In this document: in pieces, positions 12,837 through 49,519 of the stretch | Numbering within the stretch: the stretch's first letter is position 1 | How the letters are laid out: every line of letters starts with the position of its first letter | IMG/VR virus record: IMGVR_UViG_3300023313_000005 | Location: 11,554-75,553 of that record | From: a virus | Length of the DNA: 64,000 bases | Direction: 5' to 3' (one strand) | Position numbers and translations under genes: made by a program | The notes under the pieces: generated by a model | Seen by the model: only the letters and a program-made list of their open reading frames with translations | What the model was told of the DNA's origin: nothing | Database searches by the model: none

Positions 12837-13559
12837 TTAAACTCCGTAGTATTCATCATAGATATTATATTTTCCATAATTATCCTGTCTTTGATAAAAG
12901 TTTTCGGCATAAATTCTCCCATAATTGAATGAATATTTTCCATGAGTAGGGCATTCATCTCCTAAATAATTAGTATTAGAATACCATAATTGATGTTCTT
13001 TTTCATATACCCATTTACCTAATAATAAAATAGGTTTTTCGGGAAACATAATTGCTAATTTATTAGTATCTAATTTAATTAATCTTTCGGCATATACAGG
13101 ATCTATTTTATAACATTCATATAACAAATTAAGAAGATTAGGTTTTACCAATTCATTTTTAATTTTAAGTATAGTATCGGTATCGTTAGATTTATTCATG
13201 AGACTATATTCCCTAAATGTACCATTATGTGCAATTACTGGATATTTACTATAACCTTCTTCTTGAGTTATATTATCTATATCACATACATAAGGATGAC
13301 AATTTATTACGGATTTATCACCTACGGATACTTTACGTAAATGTACTATTAATTCATCATTTTTTTGAACATTGAAATTTTTAATAGCTTTTAAAAAATT
13401 AGATATTTTAAAATATCCTTTAGATAAGTATATTTTATTATCTCTTTTTATGGAAAAACCTAATCCATCTTTATTTCGTAAATTAAAAGCTTCTATTGTA
13501 CTTTTATTTAAAAATGATGTTACATCATCACCTTCTTTTTTAACTATTATTAAACACAT
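12837..13559 (-). CDS. Class II (Ntn) glutamine amidotransferase
   Basis: N-terminal M-C, DGLG, HLR, NCHPY, AHNGT and DTDT. Confidence 0.85.
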   Translation of the reverse strand: MCLIIVKKEGDDVTSFLNKSTIEAFNLRNKDGLGFSIKRDNKIYLSKGYFKISNFLKAIKNFNVQKNDELIVHLRKVSVGDKSVINCHPYVCDIDNITQEEGYSKYPVIAHNGTFREYSLMNKSNDTDTILKIKNELVKPNLLNLLYECYKIDPVYAERLIKLDTNKLAIMFPEKPILLLGKWVYEKEHQLWYSNTNYLGDECPTHGKYSFNYGRIYAENFYQRQDNYGKYNIYDEYYGV

Positions 13560-14893
13560 GATATAACACTTTTTAAATTATTAGTTTTATATACGTCATC
13601 GTTATTATCTAAATATTCTAGACGTTCATTATTTGCTTTTTTAAATTTTTCCTTACGTTCTTCAAAATATGAAATTAAATAATTAGATAATTTTTTATCA
13701 TACACATTATTCAATATTGTTTTAATATGTATTTTAGATTTATTTATGATATCTAATTGATTATTTTCAACATAATGAACAAACGCCATACAGAATAATA
13801 TCCAATTTTTAATTTTATTAAAATTTAATGACGCTCCGTGAGGTCTAAATTCTATAGTATATGAATTATTATTTCTGATATTAAAATTAGCAGGTATTAA
13901 ATTAATCCAATTATATCTTGGTAATCGATGCAGTGCGATATCATGTTGATATCTATCTGTATATCTTCCACCAGGATGATTATATGATTTATTATATTTA
14001 TTACCTAATTGTCTAGATGGTAATATATGTTGATTTAACATAATATTATATAAATATTCGTAAGCTAAATCTATACCATAATAATATCCATATTTTTTAA
14101 TATAAGGTAATAAAACATAATTAATTTTATTAGCGTATGAATTATTTTTTCTACTAAGAGGAAGTGTTTCAAATACTTCCTCTTGTAAATGCATCGCTAA
14201 TAGATTAGATAATACGGTAAATGCTTTATTATTAATAAATCCTCCAATGTGAACATGTACGGCACATTTATGATCTATTTCGCATCTTTTATTTATAATA
14301 TTTAGACTTTGTTTAAGATTATTCATTCCTAAATCACCTGATAAAATACCAGTTACATATTCTCCTCCTAATAAATCACCATCATCATTTACTAATGAAC
14401 CATCTCTAACACAACTTAAATTTAAATTATGATCTGTATATAAAGCAGGGTGTAATCTACCACTACATGTTTCAATTTCTACCCCAAAAGTATATTTTAA
14501 ATGTCCTGTAGAAATGTATGATGGTGATTTTGTGTTATTTGATGAATTATGATATTCTGTATACCAACCTATATTTTTATTTTTAAATATAGATTTTTGT
14601 ATATCATCAACTAAATCTTCACCATTATACGCCTCATATAACCCATATTTACGAGCTGTATTTAAAGAATCATAAAATGTAATACGATTATAAGTATTAT
14701 GTACTATCTTTTTTTCATATATGCCTATTGGGACATAATCTGTACTTATAACATATGATGTCTTATCTTTAGTTTTTATTTTAACTAAATGTCTAGTATT
14801 AATTACACAAAAACCTGTATCTATATGAATTTTAGGACAGTATATTTCATATTTATTAGTATTTATAACAAATACACTTTTTTGTTTATCCAT
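13550..14893 (-). CDS. Putative amidoligase (COOH-NH2 ligase fold)
   Basis: FGVEIE, RDGSL, CAVHVHIG and TIEFR motifs. Confidence 0.85.
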   Translation of the reverse strand: MDKQKSVFVINTNKYEIYCPKIHIDTGFCVINTRHLVKIKTKDKTSYVISTDYVPIGIYEKKIVHNTYNRITFYDSLNTARKYGLYEAYNGEDLVDDIQKSIFKNKNIGWYTEYHNSSNNTKSPSYISTGHLKYTFGVEIETCSGRLHPALYTDHNLNLSCVRDGSLVNDDGDLLGGEYVTGILSGDLGMNNLKQSLNIINKRCEIDHKCAVHVHIGGFINNKAFTVLSNLLAMHLQEEVFETLPLSRKNNSYANKINYVLLPYIKKYGYYYGIDLAYEYLYNIMLNQHILPSRQLGNKYNKSYNHPGGRYTDRYQHDIALHRLPRYNWINLIPANFNIRNNNSYTIEFRPHGASLNFNKIKNWILFCMAFVHYVENNQLDIINKSKIHIKTILNNVYDKKLSNYLISYFEERKEKFKKANNERLEYLDNNDDVYKTNNLKSVISCV

Positions 14894-16088
14894 AATAATC
14901 TACTATATTTTGTAATTCATTAACCTTTTTAATAACCTTTGATAATTTGAATTTTATTTTTTTAGGAACTACTTTTTGAATATTATGTAATTCCTTTTTA
15001 ATATCAGTAGTTATTTTTTCACATACTTCATATGGATCATCATCATCTACATTATTTGTTTCGTTATGAAAAAGTTCCATTAATTTTTCAATATTGTCTA
15101 TTAAAAATATATCATTAGTATTATCATTATAAGTTCTTAATAATTGATATACACTATGTGTTTCATTATAAATGATTCTATCTTCTTTCCAAACTCTAGT
15201 ACTAAATGTTGAAAAATTAAATACAGAACATGCTCCATATTTAGATGTCATAGTAATCCTACCTTTATAATTATAAACATTGGTAATATTATCAATTTTA
15301 GAATATCTAGTAAGACCAACATTATTATTTACCCATAATAAGAATTGATTATTTTTTGTTATTTTTACCTTTTTCTTAATTAATGGATTTCTTTTAATTT
15401 TAACATTAGACTTATTTAAAATAACACCATCTTTTATTTGATAATGAATAAAACTTTTAAATTCTTCAATTTTAGTACATCCTATTATTTTTAAAGGTTC
15501 TTTTTCTGAAGAAATATATATACTAGGTTCGTTATTTTGTGTAATTATTCCATAATGAAGAGGTCTTTCTTCATCTTTATATATATTTAAGATATTAGTA
15601 TCTTTAACATGCCACATTAACGCACATGCTCCTTCATAATCTGAAAGTATTTTAAGATTACCTATCGTATTAATATAATAAGGGAATATTTTAGAATCCA
15701 CATCAATTGTGTAATTATTAAATGCATTATTTGGATACATATTATTATATGTTTTTAATAACATATCTAAATTTCTAAGTGTTCCATTATGAGCACCTAC
15801 TACATCTCCATACATAAAAGGATGTGTATTTTCAATACATACTGTTCCTACAGTAGCATGTCTAGTATGTCCTATAAATAAATTACTTTCTTTAAAATCA
15901 TGATTTGTTAATACTTGATTAATAACTCCTCCTGTTTTTTTAAAAACTCTATCTTCCCATTTGATTTTTTTATTATTATTAAAATAACCTGATGAGTGAT
16001 AACCTCTATCTTGATTAAGAATAAATAATATTTTAATCAAATCTTTATTATAATTGTTCTTTCCGGAATAACCTAATAATCCACACAT
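14886..16088 (-). CDS. Class II (Ntn) glutamine amidotransferase
   Basis: MCGLLG, DRG, GHTRHAT, HPF, AHNGT and VDS. Confidence 0.9.
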   Translation of the reverse strand: MCGLLGYSGKNNYNKDLIKILFILNQDRGYHSSGYFNNNKKIKWEDRVFKKTGGVINQVLTNHDFKESNLFIGHTRHATVGTVCIENTHPFMYGDVVGAHNGTLRNLDMLLKTYNNMYPNNAFNNYTIDVDSKIFPYYINTIGNLKILSDYEGACALMWHVKDTNILNIYKDEERPLHYGIITQNNEPSIYISSEKEPLKIIGCTKIEEFKSFIHYQIKDGVILNKSNVKIKRNPLIKKKVKITKNNQFLLWVNNNVGLTRYSKIDNITNVYNYKGRITMTSKYGACSVFNFSTFSTRVWKEDRIIYNETHSVYQLLRTYNDNTNDIFLIDNIEKLMELFHNETNNVDDDDPYEVCEKITTDIKKELHNIQKVVPKKIKFKLSKVIKKVNELQNIVDYYG

Positions 16089-16116
16089 ATATTATATTAA
16101 TTTATAATTATAAAAA

Positions 16117-16572
16117 TTAAATACTGTCAACATCTGTTATTAAGATATCATCATTATTTTTTGATACACTACCGCTTTTTGTTACGGATTTTATTTTTTC
16201 TCTAAATTTTCGATAATCATTATCTGCAATGATAGATCCTAATGGTTCATTAAAATAAATATATGCTTTATGTGTTTGATTATTATCATCAATCACACTA
16301 ATTAATTTTCGTTTATACCATGACCCAGAATAATCATTTTCATTAAATCCTTCTAGATAATCTAATTCCATTAATGTATCTTCATTAACTTCATATAATT
16401 CACCTTTTACAGGAAATTTACTCTTTACTCCTTCTGCTACATATGGAATTCCCTCTTGATACATTTGATAATTAAATGCAGTTACTGCTTTACCTAAAAA
16501 TTTAGAAGATCTTAGTAGATAGTTATTACCAAATCCTTGCATTAATGTTCCGTATACAAATACTTTTATCAT
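16117..16572 (-). CDS. Gamma-glutamylcyclotransferase (AIG2-like)
   Basis: VFVYGTL, GELY, LDYLEG and YKR. Confidence 0.9.
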   Translation of the reverse strand: MIKVFVYGTLMQGFGNNYLLRSSKFLGKAVTAFNYQMYQEGIPYVAEGVKSKFPVKGELYEVNEDTLMELDYLEGFNENDYSGSWYKRKLISVIDDNNQTHKAYIYFNEPLGSIIADNDYRKFREKIKSVTKSGSVSKNNDDILITDVDSI

Positions 16573-16574
16573 TT

Positions 16575-17327
16575 TTATTTAATTAAATTGTTAATAATTT
16601 TTGTTATTTCTGTTTTATATTTATTAAATACAATATTTCCATTTAAAGAAGGTGCTGAATTTATTTCTATAATCTTATATATTGGATTATTTCTAATTTC
16701 ACCATTTTTATATTGGCTTTGTACTCGAACATCACAAGCACCTATATCTAAATTAACTGCATTTAATGCTTTTACACAATCATTTACTATTTGTTCCCAA
16801 TTAATTGGTTTTTCAAACATTTTATTATTTTCTAATATCCAATTAGAATTATTAGAATTTCTATAGAATCGTGTAGTAGCTGTTGATTTTAATAATTTTC
16901 TACATGCATGAAAACATCCATTTTTAGAAACATGTATTCTATATTCTCTTACTCCTGAAAAATATTCTTCAAAAATATAATTTGAAAATTTTAATTTATT
17001 ATAATTTTGCTCATCTCGTAATAAAAATATATCTTTAGCACGAGATCCATAAATAGGTTTAGCTATAATAGGGTATTTTAAATTATCAATTTTATATAAT
17101 GAATATTTGCAAGTAGGAATATCATACTCATTAAAACATTGTTTCATAATTCTTTTATTAGCACTATTTTTACATGCATTTGATGAATTAATTTCTAAAT
17201 ATTTATGTTTTAATGGAGTATTATGAGTAGAACCTAATCTAAGTAATACTCTTTTTGGAAAAAATGGTAATTCTTTTCTTAATCTATTATGAGAAGGATG
17301 TCGTGATCTAATTATAGGTTTAAACAT
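16575..17327 (-). CDS. ATP-grasp peptide ligase
   Basis: YPIIAKP, EYRIHV, GACDV and IEINSAP. Confidence 0.85.
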   Translation of the reverse strand: MFKPIIRSRHPSHNRLRKELPFFPKRVLLRLGSTHNTPLKHKYLEINSSNACKNSANKRIMKQCFNEYDIPTCKYSLYKIDNLKYPIIAKPIYGSRAKDIFLLRDEQNYNKLKFSNYIFEEYFSGVREYRIHVSKNGCFHACRKLLKSTATTRFYRNSNNSNWILENNKMFEKPINWEQIVNDCVKALNAVNLDIGACDVRVQSQYKNGEIRNNPIYKIIEINSAPSLNGNIVFNKYKTEITKIINNLIK

Positions 17328-17328
17328 T

Positions 17329-18057
17329 TTATACTTTTTTTAGACATTTTATATTAATTGTTTTTTCTTTATTATGTTGATCAGTTACGATACAATAATT
17401 ATTTTTAATACGCTTTACAATAAATAATTCATTTAATTTAGTATTAATAGAATATTTATCATATTTTATATATTTTACAATATTACCTTTTTCTATCTTA
17501 TTTTTTAATACTGATAATCCGTAATTAAAAATAGTATGTTCTAATTTATATATTTTATTAATCGAAAATACACGACGAGTAAAAGGTTGTATAAAACAAG
17601 CTAAATTAAGAGAATGTGGCCATAATAACTTTTGATGGTTTTTTGCTATATAAGTAACAGTTGGGGAAGCTATATCATTAACTGCATATAATTTCCTTGT
17701 ATGAGATAATGAATTTACTTCGGTATTATCATTATATATAAAAAATTTACCAAATACATTTATATAAAGAACTTTATCATAATCAATATGAAAAGAAATT
17801 TCATTTGATTCTGTAGGATAATTATTATCTGCTAATAAAAAATGTTTTTTAGAATATAAATTACCGTCTATAGAAACATAATTCTTAGTAGTTTTATGAA
17901 CATAATAATATGTATTATATATTAATTTATTTCCTGAATAACTTGCACTATTGCTTAAAACTACCCCATTAGATAATATTATATCATTATCTATTTCAGA
18001 TAAAGGTTTATAATTTTGAAATAACTGATCTCTGATTTGATTCTCTAACTCTTCCAT
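17329..18057 (-). CDS. Hypothetical protein in the amidoligase cluster
   Basis: 242-aa ORF. Confidence 0.6.
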   Translation of the reverse strand: MEELENQIRDQLFQNYKPLSEIDNDIILSNGVVLSNSASYSGNKLIYNTYYYVHKTTKNYVSIDGNLYSKKHFLLADNNYPTESNEISFHIDYDKVLYINVFGKFFIYNDNTEVNSLSHTRKLYAVNDIASPTVTYIAKNHQKLLWPHSLNLACFIQPFTRRVFSINKIYKLEHTIFNYGLSVLKNKIEKGNIVKYIKYDKYSINTKLNELFIVKRIKNNYCIVTDQHNKEKTINIKCLKKV

Positions 18058-18838
18058 TTGTAATAATTGAAATATTATATTTATTAATAATATTAGTTGC
18101 TAATATTTTATCATTATTATTTATAGCATTGATTATATTACTTTTTAATTCATTTGTAATTATATTATTATTATTAACAAAAGTTATTGCTTGTAAGGTT
18201 TGATTAAATACCCATTTTTGAAGTGATGTATTTTTTAACCAAAAATTAGAAATTGTACGGTACTCAATACCATATTTAGTAAATCTAAATCTACCCGCTT
18301 TTCCATATTCTTGTTTTCTAATATCATCATTATCCATAATTACAGCAGGTACTCCTAGAAATAAATCCATTGCTTTAACTAACTGTTCTGATATTTCCAT
18401 CTCTGGCGTATCCCATCCTACATGTATATGACCTCCCGCAAATCTATATTTAGGATGAGGTTTTATGGGAGTCATCATATTAGTAGTCCATACATCAAAA
18501 TCAATACTACATCCAAATGTAGATGCTTGTTTAGTTTTAAGAACTTTCTCTGAAAATTCCATAGAAGGGTCAGCTATTAATTTCATACCACTAGGTAATA
18601 ATTTTGTAATTTCTGTTTTACAAAATTTTATTTCTCTTATAAAGGACTTATAATCTATTACAGGAGGAATATTAAATTCTACCATTACATTATCTTCTTG
18701 TACAGCATGTCCGTTATTTGATAATTTGCGAGGTTTTCTTTTAGTTCCTCCTAAAAGTCCTTCTGCAGAAATTGAATTATTATTATTATCTATAATAAAC
18801 ATTTCGGGATCTGTTCCTATTGTTATATTAGTTATCAT
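18008..18838 (-). CDS. phiEco32-like COOH-NH2 ligase (type 2)
   Basis: IGTDPE, QEDNVMVE, FGC, GGHIHVG and YGIEYRT. Confidence 0.88.
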   Translation of the reverse strand: MITNITIGTDPEMFIIDNNNNSISAEGLLGGTKRKPRKLSNNGHAVQEDNVMVEFNIPPVIDYKSFIREIKFCKTEITKLLPSGMKLIADPSMEFSEKVLKTKQASTFGCSIDFDVWTTNMMTPIKPHPKYRFAGGHIHVGWDTPEMEISEQLVKAMDLFLGVPAVIMDNDDIRKQEYGKAGRFRFTKYGIEYRTISNFWLKNTSLQKWVFNQTLQAITFVNNNNIITNELKSNIINAINNNDKILATNIINKYNISIITNGRVRESNQRSVISKL

Positions 18839-19506
18839 TTGTTATTATTTATTGTTTTAATAATTCCAGAATTGTTGTGTAAATCATAATTATCACTAAA
18901 ATCAAACCATGAAGTGTGATACACTTTAACTTTATTAATTATATCAATAAACGGTTTACCTTTTATTAAAAATTTGTCATTTGATAAACATTCACTATTG
19001 TCTATGTTTTTAATAAAATTATCTACTGTACTATTGTTATAAAAAATACCAATTCTTAATAATAATAAATACATACTTAATAAATGAGGCTCAGATCCCC
19101 ATTGTTTATCAAACCTTACTTTTATACATTTATTATGTAGTGATAAATCTGTTTCATTTATTAATGTTTGTAATGTAATTATAGATTTTGGTATTTCAAA
19201 ATTACGTTCAATATAATGAATAAAATGTTTTAAATTATTTACATTATTTTTATTTAATTCAAAATCATCATGATGAAGTATTAATGTATATTTATTTCGT
19301 TTTTTTAATAAAGAAGAGTTACATTTAAATCCGTAAATTGATATATCACGACCTGTAATTTGAGACCAAAATATATCTTGAAAATAATCTTTACAGTACG
19401 TTAAAGGTGTAATATTTATATTATTTTCAATTAAAGAAAATTGTATACCTGATGTTACTGCTTCCTCTAATTTATGCTGTAAGTTGTTCTGAATAATTGT
19501 GATCAT
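18835..19506 (-). CDS. Hypothetical protein in the amidoligase cluster
   Basis: 223-aa coupled ORF with CKDYFQD motif. Confidence 0.6.
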   Translation of the reverse strand: MITIIQNNLQHKLEEAVTSGIQFSLIENNINITPLTYCKDYFQDIFWSQITGRDISIYGFKCNSSLLKKRNKYTLILHHDDFELNKNNVNNLKHFIHYIERNFEIPKSIITLQTLINETDLSLHNKCIKVRFDKQWGSEPHLLSMYLLLLRIGIFYNNSTVDNFIKNIDNSECLSNDKFLIKGKPFIDIINKVKVYHTSWFDFSDNYDLHNNSGIIKTINNNK

Positions 19507-20086
19507 AACAATATTTTTTTAATAAATCTTTTACTAATTTACATGAAGGGTGAGAGGTCTCTTCATATTCAGGATGAAATTGTACCGCTAATGCATTTAA
19601 ATCTTTATAATAAATAATTTCATATTCAATTACATTAGAAGTTATATTAGTAGCTATTTTATTTTTACAAAATGCTAATGGTAAATATGAATTAATATTT
19701 GTAGGATTCATCATTTGATGATGATAACTATTAACTTTAATTACTTTATTATTACAAATAATTTCATGATCTTTACAATTATGATTATTTACATCTTGAA
19801 TTAATGATCCACCAGATACAACAGTTAGTAATTGAGCACCTCTACATATTCCTAATATTGGAATATTATGTAATTTAGCCATTTCAATTACTTTTATTTC
19901 TTTATAATCACGATTTTTATCTGGGATATCATTTTTTAAATCTTCATATTGATCATATAATTTAGCGTTTATATCAGTACCTCCTCCTAATATTACTAAA
20001 TTAGCATCTTTTACAGTGTATACTTCTTTGTAATTACTTAACCATTCATGTGATTCATTAGGTGATGTCATATAAATTTTAAGCAT
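19472..20086 (-). CDS. Class I glutamine amidotransferase / peptidase C26-like
   Basis: GGGTDI, GICRGAQ, NSYHHQ and QFHPE. Confidence 0.9.
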   Translation of the reverse strand: MLKIYMTSPNESHEWLSNYKEVYTVKDANLVILGGGTDINAKLYDQYEDLKNDIPDKNRDYKEIKVIEMAKLHNIPILGICRGAQLLTVVSGGSLIQDVNNHNCKDHEIICNNKVIKVNSYHHQMMNPTNINSYLPLAFCKNKIATNITSNVIEYEIIYYKDLNALAVQFHPEYEETSHPSCKLVKDLLKKYCYDHNYSEQLTA

Positions 20087-20645
20087 TTTTTAATAATTTT
20101 TTATTACGGTTATAAACATATGTTAAATCTGACATTAAATTGGTAAATGATAACTCATCAATATACCAATCATCGCCTTCTTCATCAATTTCTAATTCGT
20201 GATCATTCATAATTACTCTTATATCAGAATAAAATTGATCATCATCTAATTGATAATATTCATCATTACTATTTTCACATGATGATATATAAGTAGATGA
20301 CTTAATTACTATTTTGTATGTTGTACAACAATACCATAAATAATAATTTAATTTATACAATACTCGTAATAAACTCTTATAAAACATATAATATGTCATA
20401 TTAGGGAAATAATTACGTGTTAATGCATATAATGATGTTACTGATCTAGATGCATTAGTACTACAATTTATATAACCTGGAGTAATTATATTTGCTGTAG
20501 CAGGTGATCCTTTTTTTATATAATTTAATAAAAAAGAATATGGTGTCTTATATAAAAAATAAGGTGTTTCAGTATCTTTATTATAAATTTTCATCATAGG
20601 ACACATATCTAACGCTCTTTTTGAATTAAAATTGTAATTTTTCAT
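20079..20645 (-). CDS. Hypothetical protein
   Basis: 188-aa coupled ORF. Confidence 0.6.
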   Translation of the reverse strand: MKNYNFNSKRALDMCPMMKIYNKDTETPYFLYKTPYSFLLNYIKKGSPATANIITPGYINCSTNASRSVTSLYALTRNYFPNMTYYMFYKSLLRVLYKLNYYLWYCCTTYKIVIKSSTYISSCENSNDEYYQLDDDQFYSDIRVIMNDHELEIDEEGDDWYIDELSFTNLMSDLTYVYNRNKKLLKNA

Positions 20646-21180
20646 AATCTCTTTTAATTATTAGATTTTTAATTACATGATATTTATTATTTTTACCATA
20701 TAAAATAGAATTATGTTTTTTTATTTTATATTTATATTCTTTGAATGTTAATATTTTTTGATCTTTAAAATCGGTTGAATTATTAGTATCACAATAATGA
20801 CTATATTGCAATAATTCAATAGGATTTAAATCAAAATTATCTTTTAGCCATTTGAAAGTTTTTAATATTGTGTTTCTTTCTTTATCTATATAAGATATCA
20901 GTTTTATAAGTAACTTTAAACTATTAAATGTATGTTCGTTACCCATTAAAATTAATTCATTAGTTTTAGTATTTATAGAAAATGGTAAATTTAAATCATT
21001 TTTTATAAAATCTAACCATTCATCAATTAAGATACCTGTCATATCACCATCTATTGTAATAATAACATCTTTAATTTTATCTTTAATTTTAAGTAATTTA
21101 AATTCATCATACGTATTAGCTAAATCATAGTATATATAATTGTTATCTGTTTCTATTGATATATATAAATTGGGTTCCAT
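20626..21180 (-). CDS. Hypothetical protein
   Basis: 184-aa coupled ORF. Confidence 0.6.
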   Translation of the reverse strand: MEPNLYISIETDNNYIYYDLANTYDEFKLLKIKDKIKDVIITIDGDMTGILIDEWLDFIKNDLNLPFSINTKTNELILMGNEHTFNSLKLLIKLISYIDKERNTILKTFKWLKDNFDLNPIELLQYSHYCDTNNSTDFKDQKILTFKEYKYKIKKHNSILYGKNNKYHVIKNLIIKRDYEKLQF

Positions 21181-29030: not shown

Positions 29031-29273
29031 TTATTTTTGTAAAATACCAAAAGAATCTCCGTTTCCTTTTGAAGTTGATAAATTTAATATTATTCCAGTT
29101 CCTACATCAGATTCATATTCAAGTCTATGTATATTTCCTTTTCCATTTCCTTTACCATCACCAATTCCTATCCCATCACCATCACCATATCCAGTTCCTT
29201 GGTTATATCCTAAACTATCTATTAATGAATCTAAACCTCCACGTCCAGTTTTTTTAAATTTATAATCTATCAT
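29031..29273 (-). CDS. Outlying MID Gly-rich peptide (MIDYKFKKTG)
   Basis: Same start motif and Gly-rich core as array A. Confidence 0.7.
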   Translation of the reverse strand: MIDYKFKKTGRGGLDSLIDSLGYNQGTGYGDGDGIGIGDGKGNGKGNIHRLEYESDVGTGIILNLSTSKGNGDSFGILQK

Positions 29274-30112: not shown

Positions 30113-30289
30113 TTAATATTTTAAATCTTCTGTAATTATATCTATAACTACCATTAATAATACTATAAATAATACTACCCGAATCCGAAACAATGTATCT
30201 AAATCTGTTATATTTATATCATTTTTGAGGAATATTACAAGAATTAGAGAAATTCCTACTACTGATAGGTATTTGATTAGTTTTTTCAT
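30113..30289 (-). CDS. Small two-TM membrane protein (58 aa, MKKLIKYLSVVG)
   Basis: Manual translation; paralog of 30294-30467. Confidence 0.7.
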   Translation of the reverse strand: MKKLIKYLSVVGISLILVIFLKNDINITDLDTLFRIRVVLFIVLLMVVIDIITEDLKY

Positions 30290-30293
30290 CTTA

Positions 30294-30467
30294 TTAATCT
30301 ATATCTTTTGTTATTACAGCTGTGAGGATTATAAATAGCGCTGTAAATGCTATCATTGCAAATCTATCAAAAGGAGATGATTCCATTATATTAGTGTCAC
30401 CTTTGATGAATATTATAAGAAGTAAGGTAAGCCCTACTACTGATAGGTATTTGATTAGCTTTCTCAT
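30294..30467 (-). CDS. Small two-TM membrane protein (57 aa, MRKLIKYLSVVG)
   Basis: Manual translation; ATGA overlap with the upstream gene. Confidence 0.7.
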   Translation of the reverse strand: MRKLIKYLSVVGLTLLLIIFIKGDTNIMESSPFDRFAMIAFTALFIILTAVITKDID

Positions 30468-31441: not shown

Positions 31442-31959
31442 GATGATTTTTCAATTAATTCCTTATGGAATTCTGCAAACTTTTTTGCTCTTTTTTTTGT
31501 TGGGAAAGCAAGGAATGATATTTTATCGCGTGTTTCTAGAATCTCATAACTTGGCTCCCCACAAATAGGTAGTATTATAGATTTAGCTGTTTTATCGTAC
31601 CATTCTAAATTCTTTTCTTCTTCCCAATTTGGACTCCAATCTCCATTATAATCAGCTACCAATTGGGATAGCATGGCTTTGGCAATACTAGCTTCTGCTT
31701 GCTTTCTTGTTTTGAATATATTACCATCATTATCAGTTCTGCGTGGAATACCTATTGGATAAATATTACTAAAAGCATCTATCCAATACCCTCCTACTTT
31801 TTCTAACTCTTCCCGAGTCTTTAATTTCCCTTCTTGTGGCTCTTCCTTGAGTGTCTTTAACACCCTCTCCAATTCTGGAATATCTTTTTTTGAAACTGTG
31901 ATTTTGACTGTGTCGGTATTCAATTCTGTTACTTTCATGTTATTTGTTTTTGATTGCAT
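31432..31959 (-). CDS. Hypothetical phage protein
   Basis: 175-aa ORF with YNGDWSPNW motif. Confidence 0.65.
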   Translation of the reverse strand: MQSKTNNMKVTELNTDTVKITVSKKDIPELERVLKTLKEEPQEGKLKTREELEKVGGYWIDAFSNIYPIGIPRRTDNDGNIFKTRKQAEASIAKAMLSQLVADYNGDWSPNWEEEKNLEWYDKTAKSIILPICGEPSYEILETRDKISFLAFPTKKRAKKFAEFHKELIEKSSWI

Positions 31960-32527
31960 TTTCTAAATGTAAAAAGTACGCTTTATATGCTTTGTACATT
32001 GCTTCTATTCTGATAAATTCTTCTGTACCTCTTTTTGTTTCAAATTCGTCATCACCCTTAAACCATTCATCCCATTGTTCAATAGTTTTGCATTCACATC
32101 CAATTTTTATTTTATTATTCACTATACCAAAACTCCATTTTGAGTAAATAGGCATAATTGCATTACTTATATCTGCTCTACGAAGGTTTACCCCGTCAAA
32201 GTTTACTCCACGAAGGTCTGATTCACGAAGGTCTGCTTCATCGAGGATTGATTCACAAAGGTTTGCTCCACGAAGGTCTGCTCTGTAAAGGTTTGCTCCA
32301 CGAAAATCTACTCTACGAAGGTTGGTTTCATAAAGATTTGCTCCACGAAGGTTAGCTTCATAAAAGTTGGCTTCAAAAAGGTTGGCTCCACAAAAATTTG
32401 CTTCAAAAAGATTGGCCCCATGAAAGTCTGCCCCACGGAGGTCAGCTCTACGCAAGTAGGCTCCTATTAATGTATCGCCTTCAATTTCTTTTAATACTTT
32501 TCCGTTAAAATCTTTAATTTGTATCAT
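31940..32527 (-). CDS. Pentapeptide repeat protein
   Basis: A(D/N)(L/F)xx repeats; C-terminal IKIGC...W domain. Confidence 0.9.
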   Translation of the reverse strand: MIQIKDFNGKVLKEIEGDTLIGAYLRRADLRGADFHGANLFEANFCGANLFEANFYEANLRGANLYETNLRRVDFRGANLYRADLRGANLCESILDEADLRESDLRGVNFDGVNLRRADISNAIMPIYSKWSFGIVNNKIKIGCECKTIEQWDEWFKGDDEFETKRGTEEFIRIEAMYKAYKAYFLHLENAIKNK

Positions 32528-32582: not shown

Positions 32583-32735
32583 TTACAATTCATAACTTAA
32601 TATATGTTTATATTTAATATGAGTATAAGGCGTAAACATTGAATTAAATTTATTTGCAATCATTATAGTAAATTTTAAATTTGGATAATCAAGTCTAGTA
32701 CGTGCTTTACAATCTTTGAGTATTACCAGTTTCAT
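32583..32735 (-). CDS. Array B peptide 9 (MKLVILKDCK...SYEL)
   Basis: Manual translation, 50 aa. Confidence 0.75.
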   Translation of the reverse strand: MKLVILKDCKARTRLDYPNLKFTIMIANKFNSMFTPYTHIKYKHILSYEL

Positions 32736-32881
32736 AGTTTATAAGTTTTTTTAGATTCGTATATAATATGACTATAGGGTAAATATACTGAATAATATCT
32801 AGTAGATATTATTATATTGTATGGTTCATTATAATAACTAATACTTTTTGCTTTACAATTTTTAAGTATAATTAATTTCAT
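32732..32881 (-). CDS. Array B peptide 8 (MKLIILKNCK...TYKL)
   Basis: Manual translation, 49 aa. Confidence 0.75.
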   Translation of the reverse strand: MKLIILKNCKAKSISYYNEPYNIIISTRYYSVYLPYSHIIYESKKTYKL

Positions 32882-33030
32882 AGCTCATAAAAATTTTTAG
32901 ATTTGTATCTAATACGACTATAAGGTAAATATAATGAATGATATGCATCAGATATTATTATATCATATGGCATAAAATATTGACTGAGTGTATTTATTGT
33001 TTTACAATCTCTAAATATTATTAACTTCAT
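32878..33030 (-). CDS. Array B peptide 7 (MKLIIFRDCK...FYEL)
   Basis: Manual translation, 50 aa. Confidence 0.75.
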   Translation of the reverse strand: MKLIIFRDCKTINTLSQYFMPYDIIISDAYHSLYLPYSRIRYKSKNFYEL

Positions 33031-33170
33031 GGCCAATAAAAGGTTATACTTTTATAATATATCTTAAAATAAGGAGTATAAAATATCTTATATCTAAAAT
33101 CTATATAAAGGTTAGAATCATCTGGTTTATTAGTATGAAATTCACAATTTTTAATTACAATTAGTCTCAT
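33027..33170 (-). CDS. Array B peptide 6 (MRLIVIKNCE...FYWP)
   Basis: Manual translation, 47 aa. Confidence 0.75.
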   Translation of the reverse strand: MRLIVIKNCEFHTNKPDDSNLYIDFRYKIFYTPYFKIYYKSITFYWP

Positions 33171-33307
33171 AAGTAATAAGTAGTTATAGTTTTAAATTTA
33201 ATTTTATAGCGAGAAAAACAAAATATATTATTTTGTAATACTATAGGGTAAGTTACGTATTTAAGTTCATTAGCTAGTTTACAGTCTTTAAGTGTTATTA
33301 GTTTCAT
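33167..33307 (-). CDS. Array B peptide 5 (MKLITLKDCK...TYYL)
   Basis: Manual translation, 46 aa. Confidence 0.75.
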   Translation of the reverse strand: MKLITLKDCKLANELKYVTYPIVLQNNIFCFSRYKIKFKTITTYYL

Positions 33308-33450
33308 ACCATATGAATTTTCATTTTTTCACCTTTTATACAAAAATTAAAAGTGTATAATGTTATAAATTGATAATCTAAAAGTACACTATAAAATATA
33401 GATGAATGATAATCATGTATTACACAATTTTTTATTATTATTAATCTCAT
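33304..33450 (-). CDS. Array B peptide 4 (MRLIIIKNCV...IHMV)
   Basis: Manual translation, 48 aa. Confidence 0.75.
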   Translation of the reverse strand: MRLIIIKNCVIHDYHSSIFYSVLLDYQFITLYTFNFCIKGEKMKIHMV

Positions 33451-33602
33451 AATTGATACATTTTACAATTTCCAAATTTTACATTTTTAATACTTATTAA
33501 TGCATATGAAGTAGTAGATACATGATATTTATAGCATATAAGATCTACAAAAGGTAAATATTGAGTAAAATCTTCATTTATAGGAATTACTATTAAATTC
33601 AT
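33447..33602 (-). CDS. Array B peptide 3 (MNLIVIPINE...MYQL)
   Basis: Manual translation, 51 aa. Confidence 0.75.
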   Translation of the reverse strand: MNLIVIPINEDFTQYLPFVDLICYKYHVSTTSYALISIKNVKFGNCKMYQL

Positions 33603-33748
33603 AACTCATATTTGTTAGAATAACTATACATAATACAAATATCACTTAGGTATAAAAGATAATTATTACTACATAGATCTGAATTTAATACAATATTTGA
33701 AATAGAAGAAGTAATATCGGCATATTTATTTAATAGTACTAAAGTCAT
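33599..33748 (-). CDS. Array B peptide 2 (MTLVLLNKYA...KYEL)
   Basis: Manual translation, 49 aa. Confidence 0.75.
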   Translation of the reverse strand: MTLVLLNKYADITSSISNIVLNSDLCSNNYLLYLSDICIMYSYSNKYEL

Positions 33749-33894
33749 AATTCATATCTATTAGAATATTTATATGTAATGCAAATATTACCTATATATA
33801 AAAGATAAATATCACTATATAGATCTGAAATTAACCTATCGTTTGATGAAAGCATAAAAATATCATCATATTTATTTAATATTACTAAAGTCAT
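33745..33894 (-). CDS. Array B peptide 1 (MTLVILNKYD...RYEL); start corrected from 33954
   Basis: 49 aa; close paralog of peptide 2. Confidence 0.75.
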   Translation of the reverse strand: MTLVILNKYDDIFMLSSNDRLISDLYSDIYLLYIGNICITYKYSNRYEL

Positions 33895-33912
33895 ATTTTG
33901 TTGTGTTGTAAT

Positions 33913-33950: not shown

Positions 33951-34178
33951 TCAATCAAATGCATCCTGTAACATTTTAGTTACAGGGTTCAGCTCTTGTT
34001 GAGTATATTTAATGATGTTTTCACTTTCTGTTTTTAATGTCCCATGCTCGCCATGGGTTACTATTCCGTTACTACCTGTTTTGATGAGAAGAGCACCTTT
34101 ATACTCCTCACTAACAATGTCCCCTTTTACCTCTAAAGTATGAGGATGGGTAGACTTTTGAATTATTAATTTTTCCAT
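33951..34178 (-). CDS. Small His-motif protein, copy B (HPH...HGEH...QQELNP); start MEKLIIQK
   Basis: Paralog of 27953-28219. Confidence 0.8.
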   Translation of the reverse strand: MEKLIIQKSTHPHTLEVKGDIVSEEYKGALLIKTGSNGIVTHGEHGTLKTESENIIKYTQQELNPVTKMLQDAFD

Positions 34179-35020: not shown

Positions 35021-35716
35021 TTAATATAAAAAAGATATATGTTGTCTAATATTAAATTTAGAATCTTCTATTAATAATAAACATTGATTAGAATTTATTA
35101 AAGTATCTATAAAAATATAGTCTTTATCTAATTCTATATTATCTCTTTTTGTATGACCTACTACTTGAATATAATCATCTATTCCATACAATTTTAAAGA
35201 TCTAGGACGTATCCATAAAGGTCCTGCGAGTTGTGAATCACCATGCGGATCAACACCTCTAAATGTAAATGATAGAGGTTTATATTTAAATAGTTCATTT
35301 AAATCAAATGCTATGGTGTCGGATTTAGGATTTATACCTACATTTTCACACCAAATTTTACTTACTCCCGCATGAGTAAACAAATAATAATCATATTCAT
35401 AAGCTATTTGAAATAATTCTAAATTATCAGTAATTAATTTTTGTATCTCAAATGCTGAAGATTGATATCCTGAATAACGCTCATTAATATTTGGGAAATA
35501 GTGATAGTCATGATTTCCAATTAATAAAATTGTATTATCAAAATTATCATTTTTATATTTTAATATTTCCTTAAAATTATGAACTTGTTCTACTAAACTA
35601 TGATTAAAACTATCAAAATAGTCACCAATAAATATTACTTTATCAGGATTTGTTTTCTCAATGTGATCCTTCCATTTAGTACAGCCATGGATATCACCAA
35701 TAACTAATGTTTTCAT
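35021..35716 (-). CDS. Calcineurin-like metallophosphoesterase
   Basis: GDIHG, GDYFD, GNHD, THAG and GHT. Confidence 0.92.
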   Translation of the reverse strand: MKTLVIGDIHGCTKWKDHIEKTNPDKVIFIGDYFDSFNHSLVEQVHNFKEILKYKNDNFDNTILLIGNHDYHYFPNINERYSGYQSSAFEIQKLITDNLELFQIAYEYDYYLFTHAGVSKIWCENVGINPKSDTIAFDLNELFKYKPLSFTFRGVDPHGDSQLAGPLWIRPRSLKLYGIDDYIQVVGHTKRDNIELDKDYIFIDTLINSNQCLLLIEDSKFNIRQHISFLY

Positions 35717-35964
35717 GTTACTGATTTGTATACTTCTGGAAATAAATTATTTCCATAAAGTATTGGTTTATTAAATGCTGATTTTAGAACTTCATGTGTC
35801 CATTCTAAATCAGATAATTTTCTAGCACTCATTGTAGAAAGTTCATATTTAAATGGTTTATTATTTAAATCAAAAAATACATGACCTATTCTAAGAGTTA
35901 CATTACCGTCATCATTTAATAATGCAATAACTCTAAATTCCCAATTTCTATATGATTTCTTCAT
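35713..35964 (-). CDS. Hypothetical protein; start MKKSYRN downstream of the tRNA
   Basis: The longer track start lies inside the tRNA. Confidence 0.6.
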   Translation of the reverse strand: MKKSYRNWEFRVIALLNDDGNVTLRIGHVFFDLNNKPFKYELSTMSARKLSDLEWTHEVLKSAFNKPILYGNNLFPEVYKSVT

Positions 35965-35979
35965 AATTTTTAAAATTTG

Positions 35980-36064
35980 TACCCGGAGCGGGACTTGAAC
36001 CCGCACGAGCGCAATGCTCATTGGATTTTAAGTCCAACGTGTCTACCAATTCCACCATCTGGGC
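35980..36064 (-). tRNA. tRNA-Leu (anticodon UAA)
   Basis: GCCCAGA/TCCGGGT acceptor stem, TGGTA D-loop, TTGGA-CTTAAAA-TCCAA anticodon arm, long variable arm, GTTCAAG T-loop. Confidence 0.95.
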
Positions 36065-45776: not shown

Positions 45777-46314
45777 GTTTGATACCAACTCTAACTTTTG
45801 GAAGATGAATCCCCAGTTTAAAATACTGGAGCCGTTTAAATCTTTATATATCAAAGATAAAACTGCGGGGAAGAAATACACTTCTAAAGTAATGTGGGCG
45901 GTAGCTTTTTTATTAGACCCTTCTAAGGATAACATTTACAGAAATGTCCCTACAGATGAACGTAAAGAACTCATCTGTAGGGATTTTTTAGGTTATTCTG
46001 TATCTAAATTCGATAAGTACCAAAATATAATGGATTTTTATAAAAAACAAGTTTTATCTCAAGCTGCTAAAAGTTTATTAGTATGGGAGGACATTATGAC
46101 AGATAGAGAAAAGACATTAAAAGGTATGTATAAAGAAGCATTAAAAAATAAAGATATTGATTTAATAGTCGAATTGGATAAATTATTAGCTACTACTCCT
46201 AAATATTATATGGATTATGATAAAATAAAAAAGACATTTTTAGAAGAAGAAGAATCCAATAATAGGGGTAAAGGGAATAGAGTCAAATCATTAACAGATA
46301 CAGGTGAGATCTAA
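45760..46314 (+). CDS. Probable terminase small subunit / packaging-associated protein
   Basis: Helical 184-aa protein overlapping the terL start. Confidence 0.5.
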   Translation: MSVINKFDTNSNFWKMNPQFKILEPFKSLYIKDKTAGKKYTSKVMWAVAFLLDPSKDNIYRNVPTDERKELICRDFLGYSVSKFDKYQNIMDFYKKQVLSQAAKSLLVWEDIMTDREKTLKGMYKEALKNKDIDLIVELDKLLATTPKYYMDYDKIKKTFLEEEESNNRGKGNRVKSLTDTGEI

Positions 46315-49300
46315 ACACATACCTAATTCAAAATTTATTGTAGGGGATATACCTGAGTTTAATCCTGTTTCCCAATACTATGAACGACTTACCTGGTGGA
46401 AAGAACAGAAACGTAGGTGCATAGAAGGATATTGGGTAGATGGTAAATGGTGCCCTGGTGTTTTATATTTTTATATAAATTTTTGGAATATAGAAGTAGA
46501 GGCAAGAGAAGGATCATTAGGTAAGGTAATTGGGACTCCGTGGTTTAGAGATTTAGAGTGGGACAAAGGGTATGTTATGGTAGAAGCAAGAGGGTTTTCC
46601 GGATTTACTAATGATGATGAATATACTTGTAACATTGCAGTATTAAAAAAAGAAGAATTACATAACGACGGATTATTAGATTTATATATAAAAAACGGAT
46701 ATGTTCGTAAGCAGGATTTAAGTAAAGAATATGTTCCCGCACGAGAATATTTACGAAAAATACATAAAGGTAATTTAGGGAAACCACTATTCCAAAATGA
46801 GGCATGTAATGTAGTAGATTTGGAATCTCGCGGAGGAGGTAAAGATTTAAAATCAACAGAAGTAGTTTATACAGAAACAGGCAAACTACCCATTTCTAAA
46901 ATCAAAGTAGGTGATCGTATTTTTGGCGCAGATGGTAAATTGACAACAATAACTTCTCGTAAAGATTTTTATGATCAGCAACAGTACAGGGTAGTATTCT
47001 CTGATGGGAGAAGTATAGAATGTGGAGGAGGGCATTTATGGACAGTGTATAGTAGAAGTAAGCACGGATACAAGAAAAAAGTATTATCTCTTGATGACAT
47101 AAGAAAAGATTATAAAATTGGTACACGGGGTGATAGTAGATATTTTGTACAATTATGCCAACCATTAGAATATTCTGAAAAAGAATTACCAATAGATCCT
47201 TATTATTTAGGATTATGGTTAGGTGATGGTAATTCAAATAATACATGTATAACTTCTGCCGACGAAGAAATAAAGGATAGTATTAAAAAATATGCTGAAG
47301 AGTTAGGTATGCGTATGAGCATTAGTTACCCTAACGAAACTGCTTCTGTTTATAGAATATGTGAATTAAAAAATGGTGTTGAAAATAAACTTATTACAAA
47401 ATTAAAACAACTAAATGTTTTATATAATAAGCACATCCCTGATATATACTTACATAGTTCCAAAGAACAACGTCTAGAATTATTAAGAGGGCTTATGGAT
47501 AGCGACGGATATGCGGATGAAAGACATATTGAATTAACTACTAGCTATAAAGGCTTACAAAAAACAATTCCCGAACTAATTCATTCATTAGGAATTAGAA
47601 CAAAAATACGCATCAAAAAGACTACGCATAAAAATAGTCTTAGAATATCATTGTTAACAGATTTACGGATATTTAAACTTACCAGAAAACTTAAATTTGT
47701 AGGGAAAAATAGATCTAAATTTGCTATTACAAATAGAACAATGAGCGCTATACGTGAAATTATTCCAACAACCGTGCATCATTCTGTATGTATAAGTGTG
47801 GATAATACTGATTCTTTATTTGTAGCGGGCGAAGGTTGTATTGTAACACATAATTCTTTTTGGGGAGGTGGTAATATAGGTCATAATTTCTTATTCGATG
47901 GTGCTATTGATTATGATGTATACTTGTCTAAAAAAATGACAGATAAGCCTTTAACTACACAAACATTAGTAGGTGCTATAGATTCGTCTTTTTCTAAAGA
48001 TTTGCTTGCTAAATTTAAATTAGGAATGAAGCATTTACCTGGAGCTATAGAATATAATAATGAAACATATCCTTCCCCATTATCTATAGATTATACAGGA
48101 TCATTAATGCCGGGTAAATTCTTAGTATCTACTGCTACTGGTAGTAAAATACATCATAGATCATTTAAAGATAATCCTTTAGCCGCAAACGGTACCAGGC
48201 CATCATTATCATATTTAGAGGAGGTCGGGTTCATGGATAATATAGAAGAATCGTTAGGGGCAATGAAAGAATGTGTTGCATCTGGAGAAAGACAATTCGG
48301 AAGTATTTACATGTTTGGTACAGGAGGTCTATTTAAAGGGATGGCATCAATGCATATGAGTAATATATTTTATAATCCTTCCGATTATAATTGTTTGGAA
48401 TTTGATGATGAATGGGAAGGGCGTGGTAAAATTGGTTATTTTATACCTGCGTATAGAACACTTAATGGATTTAAAGAAACTGAAGATTATATAACGAATG
48501 ATGAAAAGGCATTAAATTTTTTATTAAAAGAACGTAAATCAGTATTAAAAAATAAAATTAAATATGCATCGGAAGTAATTAATAGACCTATAAAACCTTC
48601 TGAAATATTCTTTTCTACAGAAGGTACTTTCTTCCCATTAACTGAACTTAAACAGAGTCAGGAGAACTTACTAAAAAATGATAAATTATTAAACGCATCA
48701 TGGAAAGGATTTGTTGTAATATCAGAAGATGATACATTAATATGGAAAAATACGGATGATATGCCTATAACACAATGGCCCTATAAAGCAGGTAAAATGG
48801 GGGAAGGCTGTATAGAAATATTTGAAATGCCTGTAAAAAATGTAGAAAATGAGGTAGTAAATAATATATATATTGCAGGATGTGACCCGGTTGACGATGA
48901 TGGCTTTGAAGGGTCATTACAATCATCATTTATTATGAATAGGCTTACGGGTAGAATAGTTGCTGAATACACAGCACGTCATGAAAGGGCAGACCAATAT
49001 TATGAGAATTTAAGAAAATTACTTTTATTTTTTAACGCAAAGTGTAATTATGAAAATAACAAAAAGGGTTTATTTCAGTATTTTCATAATATGAATTGTT
49101 CATATCTATTATCAGAAACCCCTAAATTATTAAGGGATCAAGGCATGGTTAGAACAGTAAGCATTGGTAACAAGTCGTATGGTACACCTGCTAATCAATA
49201 TGTTAATAGATGGGCTAGAGATTTAATAAAGAAATGGTTATTAGAACCTGCTATTAACAAAGATAACAACATAAATGCCGATACTATACGTTCTATTGCA

Positions 49301-49519
49301 TTAATAGAAGAATTAATAAGATGGACAGATAAGGGTAATTTTGATAGGGTATCAGCATTGGGGATGTTAATGATATTAAAAGAAGAAAAATATAAAAACG
49401 CAGTAAGTTTAGAAACCACACATCAATCAATATTTAATAGATGGTCAGGTAGATTAAAGAAGAAAGGTATCGGTTATAAAAAAGCTATTACGAAACAAAA
49501 TTTTTTACAGAATAATTAA
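46304..49519 (+). CDS. terL: Terminase large subunit with an intein
   Basis: Walker A SRGGGK|S, Walker B LEEVG, FGTGG, nuclease motif AGCDP, YENN and GNFDRVSA. Confidence 0.93.
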   Translation: MRSKHIPNSKFIVGDIPEFNPVSQYYERLTWWKEQKRRCIEGYWVDGKWCPGVLYFYINFWNIEVEAREGSLGKVIGTPWFRDLEWDKGYVMVEARGFSGFTNDDEYTCNIAVLKKEELHNDGLLDLYIKNGYVRKQDLSKEYVPAREYLRKIHKGNLGKPLFQNEACNVVDLESRGGGKDLKSTEVVYTETGKLPISKIKVGDRIFGADGKLTTITSRKDFYDQQQYRVVFSDGRSIECGGGHLWTVYSRSKHGYKKKVLSLDDIRKDYKIGTRGDSRYFVQLCQPLEYSEKELPIDPYYLGLWLGDGNSNNTCITSADEEIKDSIKKYAEELGMRMSISYPNETASVYRICELKNGVENKLITKLKQLNVLYNKHIPDIYLHSSKEQRLELLRGLMDSDGYADERHIELTTSYKGLQKTIPELIHSLGIRTKIRIKKTTHKNSLRISLLTDLRIFKLTRKLKFVGKNRSKFAITNRTMSAIREIIPTTVHHSVCISVDNTDSLFVAGEGCIVTHNSFWGGGNIGHNFLFDGAIDYDVYLSKKMTDKPLTTQTLVGAIDSSFSKDLLAKFKLGMKHLPGAIEYNNETYPSPLSIDYTGSLMPGKFLVSTATGSKIHHRSFKDNPLAANGTRPSLSYLEEVGFMDNIEESLGAMKECVASGERQFGSIYMFGTGGLFKGMASMHMSNIFYNPSDYNCLEFDDEWEGRGKIGYFIPAYRTLNGFKETEDYITNDEKALNFLLKERKSVLKNKIKYASEVINRPIKPSEIFFSTEGTFFPLTELKQSQENLLKNDKLLNASWKGFVVISEDDTLIWKNTDDMPITQWPYKAGKMGEGCIEIFEMPVKNVENEVVNNIYIAGCDPVDDDGFEGSLQSSFIMNRLTGRIVAEYTARHERADQYYENLRKLLLFFNAKCNYENNKKGLFQYFHNMNCSYLLSETPKLLRDQGMVRTVSIGNKSYGTPANQYVNRWARDLIKKWLLEPAINKDNNINADTIRSIALIEELIRWTDKGNFDRVSALGMLMILKEEKYKNAVSLETTHQSIFNRWSGRLKKKGIGYKKAITKQNFLQNN
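46844..47854 (+). mobile_element. 337-aa intein with a LAGLIDADG homing endonuclease, inserted in the terminase Walker A motif
   Basis: Ends VTHN|S; LGLWLGDG and LRGLMDSDG motifs; removing it restores GGGKS. Confidence 0.9.

Follow-up and report, generated by a model that had tools for sequence, protein, structure and literature searches.

Nine overlapping small genes in Array B

The DNA analysed here is a 64,000-nucleotide stretch (the window) of the IMG/VR virus record IMGVR_UViG_3300023313_000005, a 75.5-kb record whose source sample is a microbial mat metagenome. On the minus strand of the window, positions 32583-33894 carry nine open reading frames (ORFs) with ATG start codons, each encoding 46-51 amino acids, which tile 1312 bases end to end. 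We refer to this arrangement as Array B and to its members as units 1 to 9; it lies behind a pair of genes that we call hub B and partner B. At all eight junctions, neighbouring units overlap by the four bases ATGA, in which the TGA stop codon of one unit is contained in the ATG-A of the next. TGA is the stop codon of eight of the nine units and TAA that of unit 9. An initial annotation, made from the DNA letters, had described this layout, and its account holds: all nine ORFs start and end where it had placed them and all eight overlaps are present. The proposed N-terminal motif M[KRTN]L[IV] occurs in every unit, its continuation [KR][DN]C in six (units 4-9), and the C-terminal Y[EKQY]L, described as frequent, in seven. 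The same annotation had called the array hidden in apparently non-coding DNA. This impression turned out to be an artefact of the length cut-off of the ORF track used, and both a large public protein collection and the ESM Atlas already contain the units as predicted proteins.

Stop codons are frequent in the DNA of Array B, since its G+C content is only 18-22% (6-14% at third codon positions, GC3), and the other five frames contain no ORF of at least 30 amino acids within the array. For comparison with the tiling, the sequence (21% G+C) was simulated 2000 times with a first-order Markov model. ATG-to-stop ORFs of at least 40 amino acids covered 6.7% of the simulated sequences on average and 39% at most, with no more than three ORFs, compared to 100% coverage by nine ORFs in the observed sequence. 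The repeat is not an assembly artefact, because an independent assembly of the probable source run spans the whole of Array B in a single contig, with zero differences and no alternative joints.

Codon usage was scored with a log-odds model derived from 25 long ORFs in the window, for which in-frame chunks of long genes score 0.49 +/- 0.13. All nine units gave positive values in frame (+0.24 to +0.46 per codon) and negative values in the shifted frames (-0.4 to -1.5), a contrast that is partly due merely to the lack of in-frame stop codons. Residues conserved among the units are spelled with synonymous codons: leucine 3 with TTA, CTA or CTG, isoleucine 40 with ATT or ATA, the C-terminal leucine (Leu55) with TTA, CTA or TTG, and the tyrosines of columns 34 and 42 with TAT or TAC. 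Furthermore, the nucleotide identity between units goes down to about 50%, yet the frame, the length of 46-51 codons and every ATGA junction were kept. Based on the codon scores, the synonymous codons at conserved residues and the preservation of frames, lengths and junctions despite this drift, we regard the units as real genes, and Array B is very probably a real, tandemly duplicated, orphan family of micro-protein genes. The packing of the nine genes is operon-like, and they are presumably coupled in translation. Reading of TGA as tryptophan would not fuse the units, as read-through stops after two codons. An Rfam search of Array B gave no match at the family threshold and yielded only a sub-threshold, snoRNA-like chance match. 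The single RNA run listed for the sample, a metatranscriptome of 4 million letters, contained nothing on the stretch, but this run is tiny and uninformative with regard to expression.

Duplication, constraint and relatives of the family

Tandem Repeats Finder detected 146-base periods at both ends of Array B, at 33594-33895 (79% matches) and at 32703-32970 (81% matches), and these two repeats correspond to the unit pairs 1/2 and 7/8. Units 1 and 2 are 63% identical at the amino acid and 76% at the nucleotide level, units 7 and 8 57% and 76%, respectively, and the remaining pairs have amino acid identities of 15-46%. As read from the sequence, units 1/2 and 7/8 are the youngest copies, and Array B has grown by repeated local tandem duplication. 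All nine units can be aligned over their full length, and their own profile recovers each of them at E values of 4e-23 to 2.5e-15, a result that is partly circular as the units are contained in the profile. Conservation is concentrated at both ends: the mean pairwise identity is 45% over the ten N-terminal columns and 35% at the C-terminus but drops to 18% in between, compared to 8% expected from composition. These values support the earlier description of nine paralogous genes of near-constant length (46-51 amino acids) whose middles have diverged strongly. The encoded proteins are rich in tyrosine (12%) and isoleucine (13%) and contain 3% cysteine and 0.7% glycine.

For the two young pairs, the ratios of nonsynonymous to synonymous substitution rates (dN/dS), estimated according to Nei and Gojobori, were 0.68 and 0.86. 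Those of the older pairs, in which the AT-rich third positions are saturated, scattered between 0.46 and 1.37. The diversifying selection that had been suggested for the family is not borne out by these estimates, as relaxed constraint fits them equally well. Ratios close to 1 in several pairs, the very low G+C content (18-22%) and the repetitive sequence would also be compatible with units that have no function, i.e. with a DNA- or RNA-level element or with decaying duplicates whose frames are open by chance or youth. Nevertheless, we consider this explanation highly improbable: the nine frames, their lengths and the eight ATGA junctions are intact at about 50% nucleotide identity in stop-rich DNA, conserved residues are spelled with synonymous codons, the in-frame codon signal is found in nine of nine units, no Rfam family threshold was reached, and the opposite strand contains no ORFs.

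For unit 8, AlphaFold2 predicted from the nine-row alignment an all-beta structure of six short strands in three hairpin-like pairs with a predicted local distance difference test (pLDDT) of 88, in line with the small beta-rich fold proposed in the initial annotation. No significant match to this model was detected in the PDB (best Foldseek E = 3; best Z of 3.1 in the VIA wide search, with weak generic beta matches).

None of the nine units matched a family in Pfam (at E <= 1), PHROGs, NCBIfam or PADLOC. The nine-unit profile gave exactly nine matches in the whole 75.5-kb viral record, retrieved only its own units plus two low-complexity false matches from 1.84 billion representative proteins, and found no match in 21 related crAss-like contigs. 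Likewise, the ESM Atlas contained no relative beyond the array's own units, and blastn of the Array B region against GenBank phages gave no match. No relative of Array B was found by hmmsearch in 6948 small ORFs of the loci encoding hub homologs or in bacterial hub loci, or by pattern scans for the head motif in IMG/VR and 241 million metagenome records. In the databases searched, the Array B family appears on this contig alone and is an orphan. The novelty lies in the family as such, in the strict ATGA tiling of DNA of about 20% G+C and, above all, in the setting of Array B beside a duplicated and conserved two-gene module with which a contact is predicted.

The hub and partner genes beside the array

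The window derives from a crAss-like phage, in agreement with the Crassvirales context assumed earlier. The major capsid protein encoded in it shares 39% identity with those of gut crAss phages of Bacteroides and 76-80% with those of several short IMG/VR contigs, and the window also encodes a terminase, a portal protein and a DNA polymerase. A block of GroEL, terminase and structural genes on the plus strand, starting at about 39.9 kb, is syntenic in relatives. Array B is located in the variable minus-strand arm, upstream of the replication genes; this minus-strand stretch, from 39.5 kb to 23 kb, was found to be unconserved in the relatives' stretches compared, apart from one match to the hub domain. 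Owing to their short length or their orientation, the most closely related contigs (capsid protein 76-80% identical) do not extend to Array B, and only the present contig spans the region. The arm carrying Array B is the early or accessory arm of an environmental crAss-like phage.

Along the minus strand, the order of features is hub B, partner B, a hairpin, Array B and the gene of a pentapeptide-repeat protein (Table 1). The RNA fold of the 71-nucleotide stretch containing the hairpin has a free energy of -17.4 kcal/mol (z = -3.4), and none of 200 shuffled sequences was as stable. Only about 20 A-rich bases separate the hairpin from the ATG of unit 1, and transcription of Array B probably proceeds through or starts after this hairpin behind the module. 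The pentapeptide-repeat protein directly downstream of Array B (31940-32527, minus strand; 195 amino acids, Pfam E 4e-33) is encoded by a gene with a 15-base tandem repeat at the DNA level.

The module is duplicated in the window. The second pair, hub A and partner A, is followed by a DUF6948 gene, a hairpin and Array A, and each copy of hub and partner precedes its own small-ORF array after a hairpin. Hub B and hub A are 35% identical (E 5e-34) in an alignment that spans only the C-terminal ~180 residues; the N-terminal ~70-90 residues of the two proteins do not align. The two partners are 35% identical as well (E 9e-12). With regard to partner B, its alignment with homologs suggests that the true start is Met14 at 34178, which would give a protein of 75 amino acids. 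A further member of Array A is located upstream of hub A (29031-29273, minus strand).

Table 1 Positions in the window of the Array B units and of the features of the two hub and partner modules.
Feature	Start	End	Strand	Description
Unit 1	33745	33894	-	49 amino acids, MTLVIL...YEL; ATG start, TGA stop
Unit 2	33599	33748	-	49 amino acids; ATGA overlap with unit 1; codon log-odds +0.27 in frame, -0.8 and -1.0 off frame
Unit 3	33447	33602	-	51 amino acids; most diverged unit; no Cys at position 9
Unit 4	33304	33450	-	48 amino acids; C-terminal end HMV
Unit 5	33167	33307	-	46 amino acids
Unit 6	33027	33170	-	47 amino acids; C-terminal end YWP
Unit 7	32878	33030	-	50 amino acids
Unit 8	32732	32881	-	49 amino acids; nearest to the family consensus; used for modelling and complex prediction
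Unit 9	32583	32735	-	50 amino acids; last unit; TAA stop
Stem-loop before Array B	33915	33943	-	13 pairs and a U-rich run, terminator-like; between partner gene and unit 1
Partner B	33951	34217	-	88 amino acids from first ATG; three invariant His; QQExNP motif
Hub B	34183	35001	-	272 amino acids; variable N-terminal domain and conserved C-terminal domain (CWCTTTNxEHW, RQGDV, LLTAQS)
Array A	23439	27459	-	about 18 Gly/Tyr/Asn-rich small ORFs; start MID/MVD, mostly end IL; many ATGA junctions
Hairpin before Array A	27474	27499	-	terminator-like; RNA fold -20.3 kcal/mol, z = -3.7
Partner A	27953	28219	-	88-amino-acid paralog of partner B
Hub A	28236	28997	-	253-amino-acid paralog of hub B

In contrast to the units, the module is widely conserved. 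We found 101 homologs of hub B of about 245-260 amino acids in metagenomes, none of them with a Pfam domain, and the hub is encoded at at least 140 IMG/VR loci. It was absent from 50,697 GenBank phage records searched with two different queries, and the 272-amino-acid hub gene used alone as query found no close relative in IMG/VR. We inspected 80 of the IMG/VR hub loci, some of which are redundant, and the partner gene was located beside the hub gene, on the same strand and within 2.4 kb, in 69 of them. The alignment of the partner family revealed three invariant histidines, which suggest a metal site, and a QQExNP...D C-terminus. AlphaFold2 predicted the hub structure with a pLDDT of 93, but searches with this model recovered no known fold (best Foldseek E 0.027; best VIA Z of 5.3, for a helical part only), and the hub sequence profile gave no match in the PDB.

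Neither the 272- nor the 253-amino-acid hub matched DUF6745 (PF20530) at E <= 0.1, whereas the 396-amino-acid hub homolog of a related phage does so with 33.4 bits (cutoff 27) over residues 151-249, upstream of the shared C-terminal domain. In Bacteroidota (Kordia, Tenacibaculum, Chryseobacterium, Chitinophagales and others), the partner gene directly precedes the gene of a protein of about 640 amino acids, which keeps the C-terminal domain of the hub and carries leucine-rich-repeat (LRR)-like repeats in place of the phage N-terminal part (loci L132-L141, e.g. L134 4373-6534). No small-ORF array was present beside the bacterial module at the two bacterial loci inspected. Since LRR-like repeats or DUF6745 replace it elsewhere, the N-terminal part of the hub is exchangeable, and the C-terminal domain together with the partner forms the constant part.

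Other phages also carry arrays of small paralogs next to their hub pair. In the related phage mentioned above (capsid protein 67% identical), the hub homolog, the partner and a gene for 189 amino acids are followed, in the same place, by seven ORFs of about 50 amino acids with ATGA-type junctions, whose mutual alignment is weak (identities of 24-45% to the first ORF). A conservative all-against-all search of the 80 loci revealed tandem families of small paralogs (54-107 amino acids) at six loci (L051, L053, L059, L062, L072 and L076). One member at L062 matched MORN_2 with an E value of 9e-9 and the member at L076 only with 0.058; the others were called MORN-like by sequence pattern. These MORN_2-like arrays have ATGA junctions and up to 21 members (L062 3033-14322, L076 7557-9333). 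In addition, L064 contains a Gly-rich family resembling Array A beside a hub homolog, and L055 three 'MKL...' ORFs of about 57-62 amino acids. Several of the arrays begin approximately 10-230 bases past the hub stop codon and others surround the hub.

Array B shows no sequence relationship to any of these arrays, the hhalign probabilities being 2.2% for L055, 1.2% for L076 and L062 and 0.2% for G021. The MORN_2 (YwqK-like, PF07661) arrays at the six loci resemble Array B in their position beside a hub or partner homolog, their ATGA packing, their similar unit size and their richness in tyrosine. They differ from it in sequence, with a profile-profile probability of 1-2%. The MORN_2 repeat is a beta-hairpin repeat. 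MORN repeats are rich in glycine, whereas Array B is poor in it (0.7%). An assignment of the Array B units to MORN_2 was rejected, as there was no Pfam match at E <= 1; the L062 member served as positive control.

Several other features of the window were recorded. Two adjacent paralogs of 57-58 amino acids with a hydrophobic N-terminal segment (M[RK]KLIKYLSVVG...) are encoded at 30294-30467 and 30113-30289 on the minus strand and represent another small tandem duplication in the same arm. A tRNA-Leu gene with anticodon UAA (35979-36064, minus strand) overlaps the start of a 102-codon ORF (35713-36021), the annotated start of which is therefore probably wrong; UUA is the most frequent leucine codon in Array B. 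On the plus strand, a phage GroEL (44006-45628), which shares about 41-43% identity with the GroEL proteins of Bacteroides, Flavobacterium and Vibrio phages, is encoded just upstream of the terminase block. The large terminase ORF (46304-49519, plus strand; 1071 amino acids) matched terminase PHROGs in two blocks (residues 164-519 and 609-1040), and its relatives align in two pieces; the ORF may contain an inserted domain or an intein. Finally, one gene product encoded in 12837-21180 (minus strand) matched an amidoligase PHROG. Any connection with the conserved micro-protein C-termini would be entirely speculative.

A predicted contact with the hub and its interpretation

We predicted the structure of a complex of hub B, partner B and unit 8. 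The score of the unit was 0.64 (0.59, 0.64 and 0.68 in the individual runs), compared to 0.30 for the best control. In the calibration of the prediction tool, this mark was reached by 58 of 80 solved complexes and by 2 of 110 mismatched pairs, and the calibration holds only roughly for the present prediction, which used own alignments and three chains. The runs shared at least 71% of the contacts, and the pLDDT of the unit chain was at least 70. Confident contacts were predicted between residues 2-9 of unit 8 and residues 10-17 of the hub, plus helices around residues 59-83. The predicted interface places the most conserved segment of the unit on the variable N-terminal domain of the hub. This prediction supports, but does not show, that the units bind the hub.

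Our preferred, if tentative, reading is that the adjacent hub pair has the units as its clients and recognises them via their shared N-terminal strand. This strand (M-K-L-I-I-L-K) would pair with a beta strand in the variable N-terminal domain of the hub and thereby dock onto it, whereupon the conserved C-terminal domain of the hub and the His-rich partner would act on the units or deploy them. The phage would thereby obtain a small set of proteins that differ in their bodies but share the same handle. In a wider version, which we regard as rather unlikely, hub, partner and arrays would form one phage system, in which the exchangeable N-terminal domain of the hub reads the handle on tandemly diversified micro-proteins and the system modifies, assembles or delivers them.

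A number of points weigh against such a role. The case for binding is one in-silico prediction on shallow, self-made alignments, and a hydrophobic N-terminal strand may pair unspecifically with exposed edge strands, the best control already reaching 0.30. Neither hub nor partner has a recognisable catalytic fold or family, so an action on the units has no chemistry behind it. We infer that the units are translated, and dN/dS values near 0.7-0.9 show weak constraint. Roughly 70 of the 80 hub loci are without a recognisable array, so the module does not need one, and the arrays on both sides of the hub at L059 and L062 also fit plain co-location in a variable region. Finally, the enrichment of arrays near the hub is an impression and not a statistic, as the matched control loci (phosphoesterase and GroEL genes) numbered 0 and 5.

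Alternatively, the units could be independent early host-takeover or anti-defence proteins, an arms-race family of the 'genomic accordion' type, with the hub neighbourhood being incidental in a variable early region. We consider this the strongest alternative, only slightly less likely than the client model. Recent duplicates and weak constraint fit a fast turnover, the arrays are missing at most hub loci, and the 23-39.5 kb neighbourhood is not conserved in the relatives' stretches compared, bar the one hub-domain match. Moreover, the protein encoded directly downstream is a pentapeptide-repeat protein, a class known for DNA mimicry. There are also precedents among phages. Blocks of short lineage-specific genes with a suspected anti-CRISPR role have been described in crAss-like phages (Yutin et al. 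2021, PMC7886860). Like these blocks, Array B is a same-strand run of short genes that lies in a Crassvirales genome and is without homologs outside its lineage. It differs from them in that its genes are clear paralogs of near-constant length with ATGA at every boundary and follow a conserved two-gene module, a second copy of which is present together with another array. Phages G and 121Q contain long tandem arrays of similar genes, which were read as a product of tandem duplication (2017, PMC5646251). Array B shares with them the head-to-tail duplication of a phage gene family and belongs to the descriptive class of tandem paralogous small-gene families (at least three homologous ORFs on the same strand, head to tail, in a phage genome); in contrast to the G and 121Q arrays, its nine copies are far more diverged (15-63% amino acid identity), their products are much smaller, and they are located in a podovirus-type genome of about 100 kb together with a candidate partner protein.

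Other observations are less easily reconciled with units that are independent of the hub. Array A, Array B and the array of the related phage all follow the hub pair in the same order, unrelated families of small paralogs adjoin the same pair in other phages, and the complex prediction, for what a model can tell, passed its controls. In addition, no unit matches a PADLOC, PHROG or Pfam family, which leaves the units with no tie to a known anti-defence family. A check for hallmarks of anti-CRISPR and anti-defence genes revealed no family match and no helix-turn-helix regulator among the neighbours, but this is a weak test, as PADLOC contains defence models only and not anti-defence models.

A special case of the client model would be that the units are precursors similar to those of ribosomally synthesized and post-translationally modified peptides (RiPPs), consisting of an N-terminal recognition segment and a variable core, with hub and partner as the modifying enzyme. 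RiPP clusters with multiple precursors, e.g. those of the prochlorosins, contain tandem short genes with a conserved N-terminal segment and a variable remainder, and RiPP recognition elements (RREs) bind leaders as a docked beta strand. Array B is similar in that the genes of a conserved pair of proteins are followed by many tandem, precursor-sized genes with a conserved head and a variable body. In the complex prediction, this head docks in the form of a beta strand on the N-terminal beta/alpha domain of the hub, and the three invariant histidines of the partner suggest a metal site. We nevertheless regard this variant as improbable. Hub and partner gave no match in Pfam, NCBIfam or the PDB and thus none to a family of RiPP enzymes, RREs (PqqD), proteases or transporters, and no RiPP exporter was recognised, although the absence of a fold match is no proof. 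Furthermore, the prediction for the units is a folded beta protein, conserved at its C-terminus as well (35%), rather than a disordered leader-core peptide. The MORN-like arrays elsewhere encode repeat proteins of 54-107 amino acids, which are unlikely precursors, and the hub pair is also found where no array is present.

Runs of tiny orphan genes fill a noticeable share of many phage genomes, including those of crAss-like phages, and to our knowledge none of them has an assigned function. Array B gains a concrete candidate partner in this respect, namely a two-gene module of phages and Bacteroidota that is duplicated with a second, unrelated array. If the link between units and hub fails, Array B would be a fast-evolving orphan family that still illustrates clearly how genes are born by tandem duplication in very AT-rich DNA. 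If hub, partner and arrays do form one system, it would be a protein-level cassette system for variety in Bacteroidota phages, with Array B, Array A and the MORN-like arrays as libraries, and the bacterial relatives would use an LRR domain instead of the handle-binding domain. If the link holds, the 'blocks of short genes' would turn into a system in which a reader recognises the handle carried by variable bodies, and the hub family would obtain its first functional lead.

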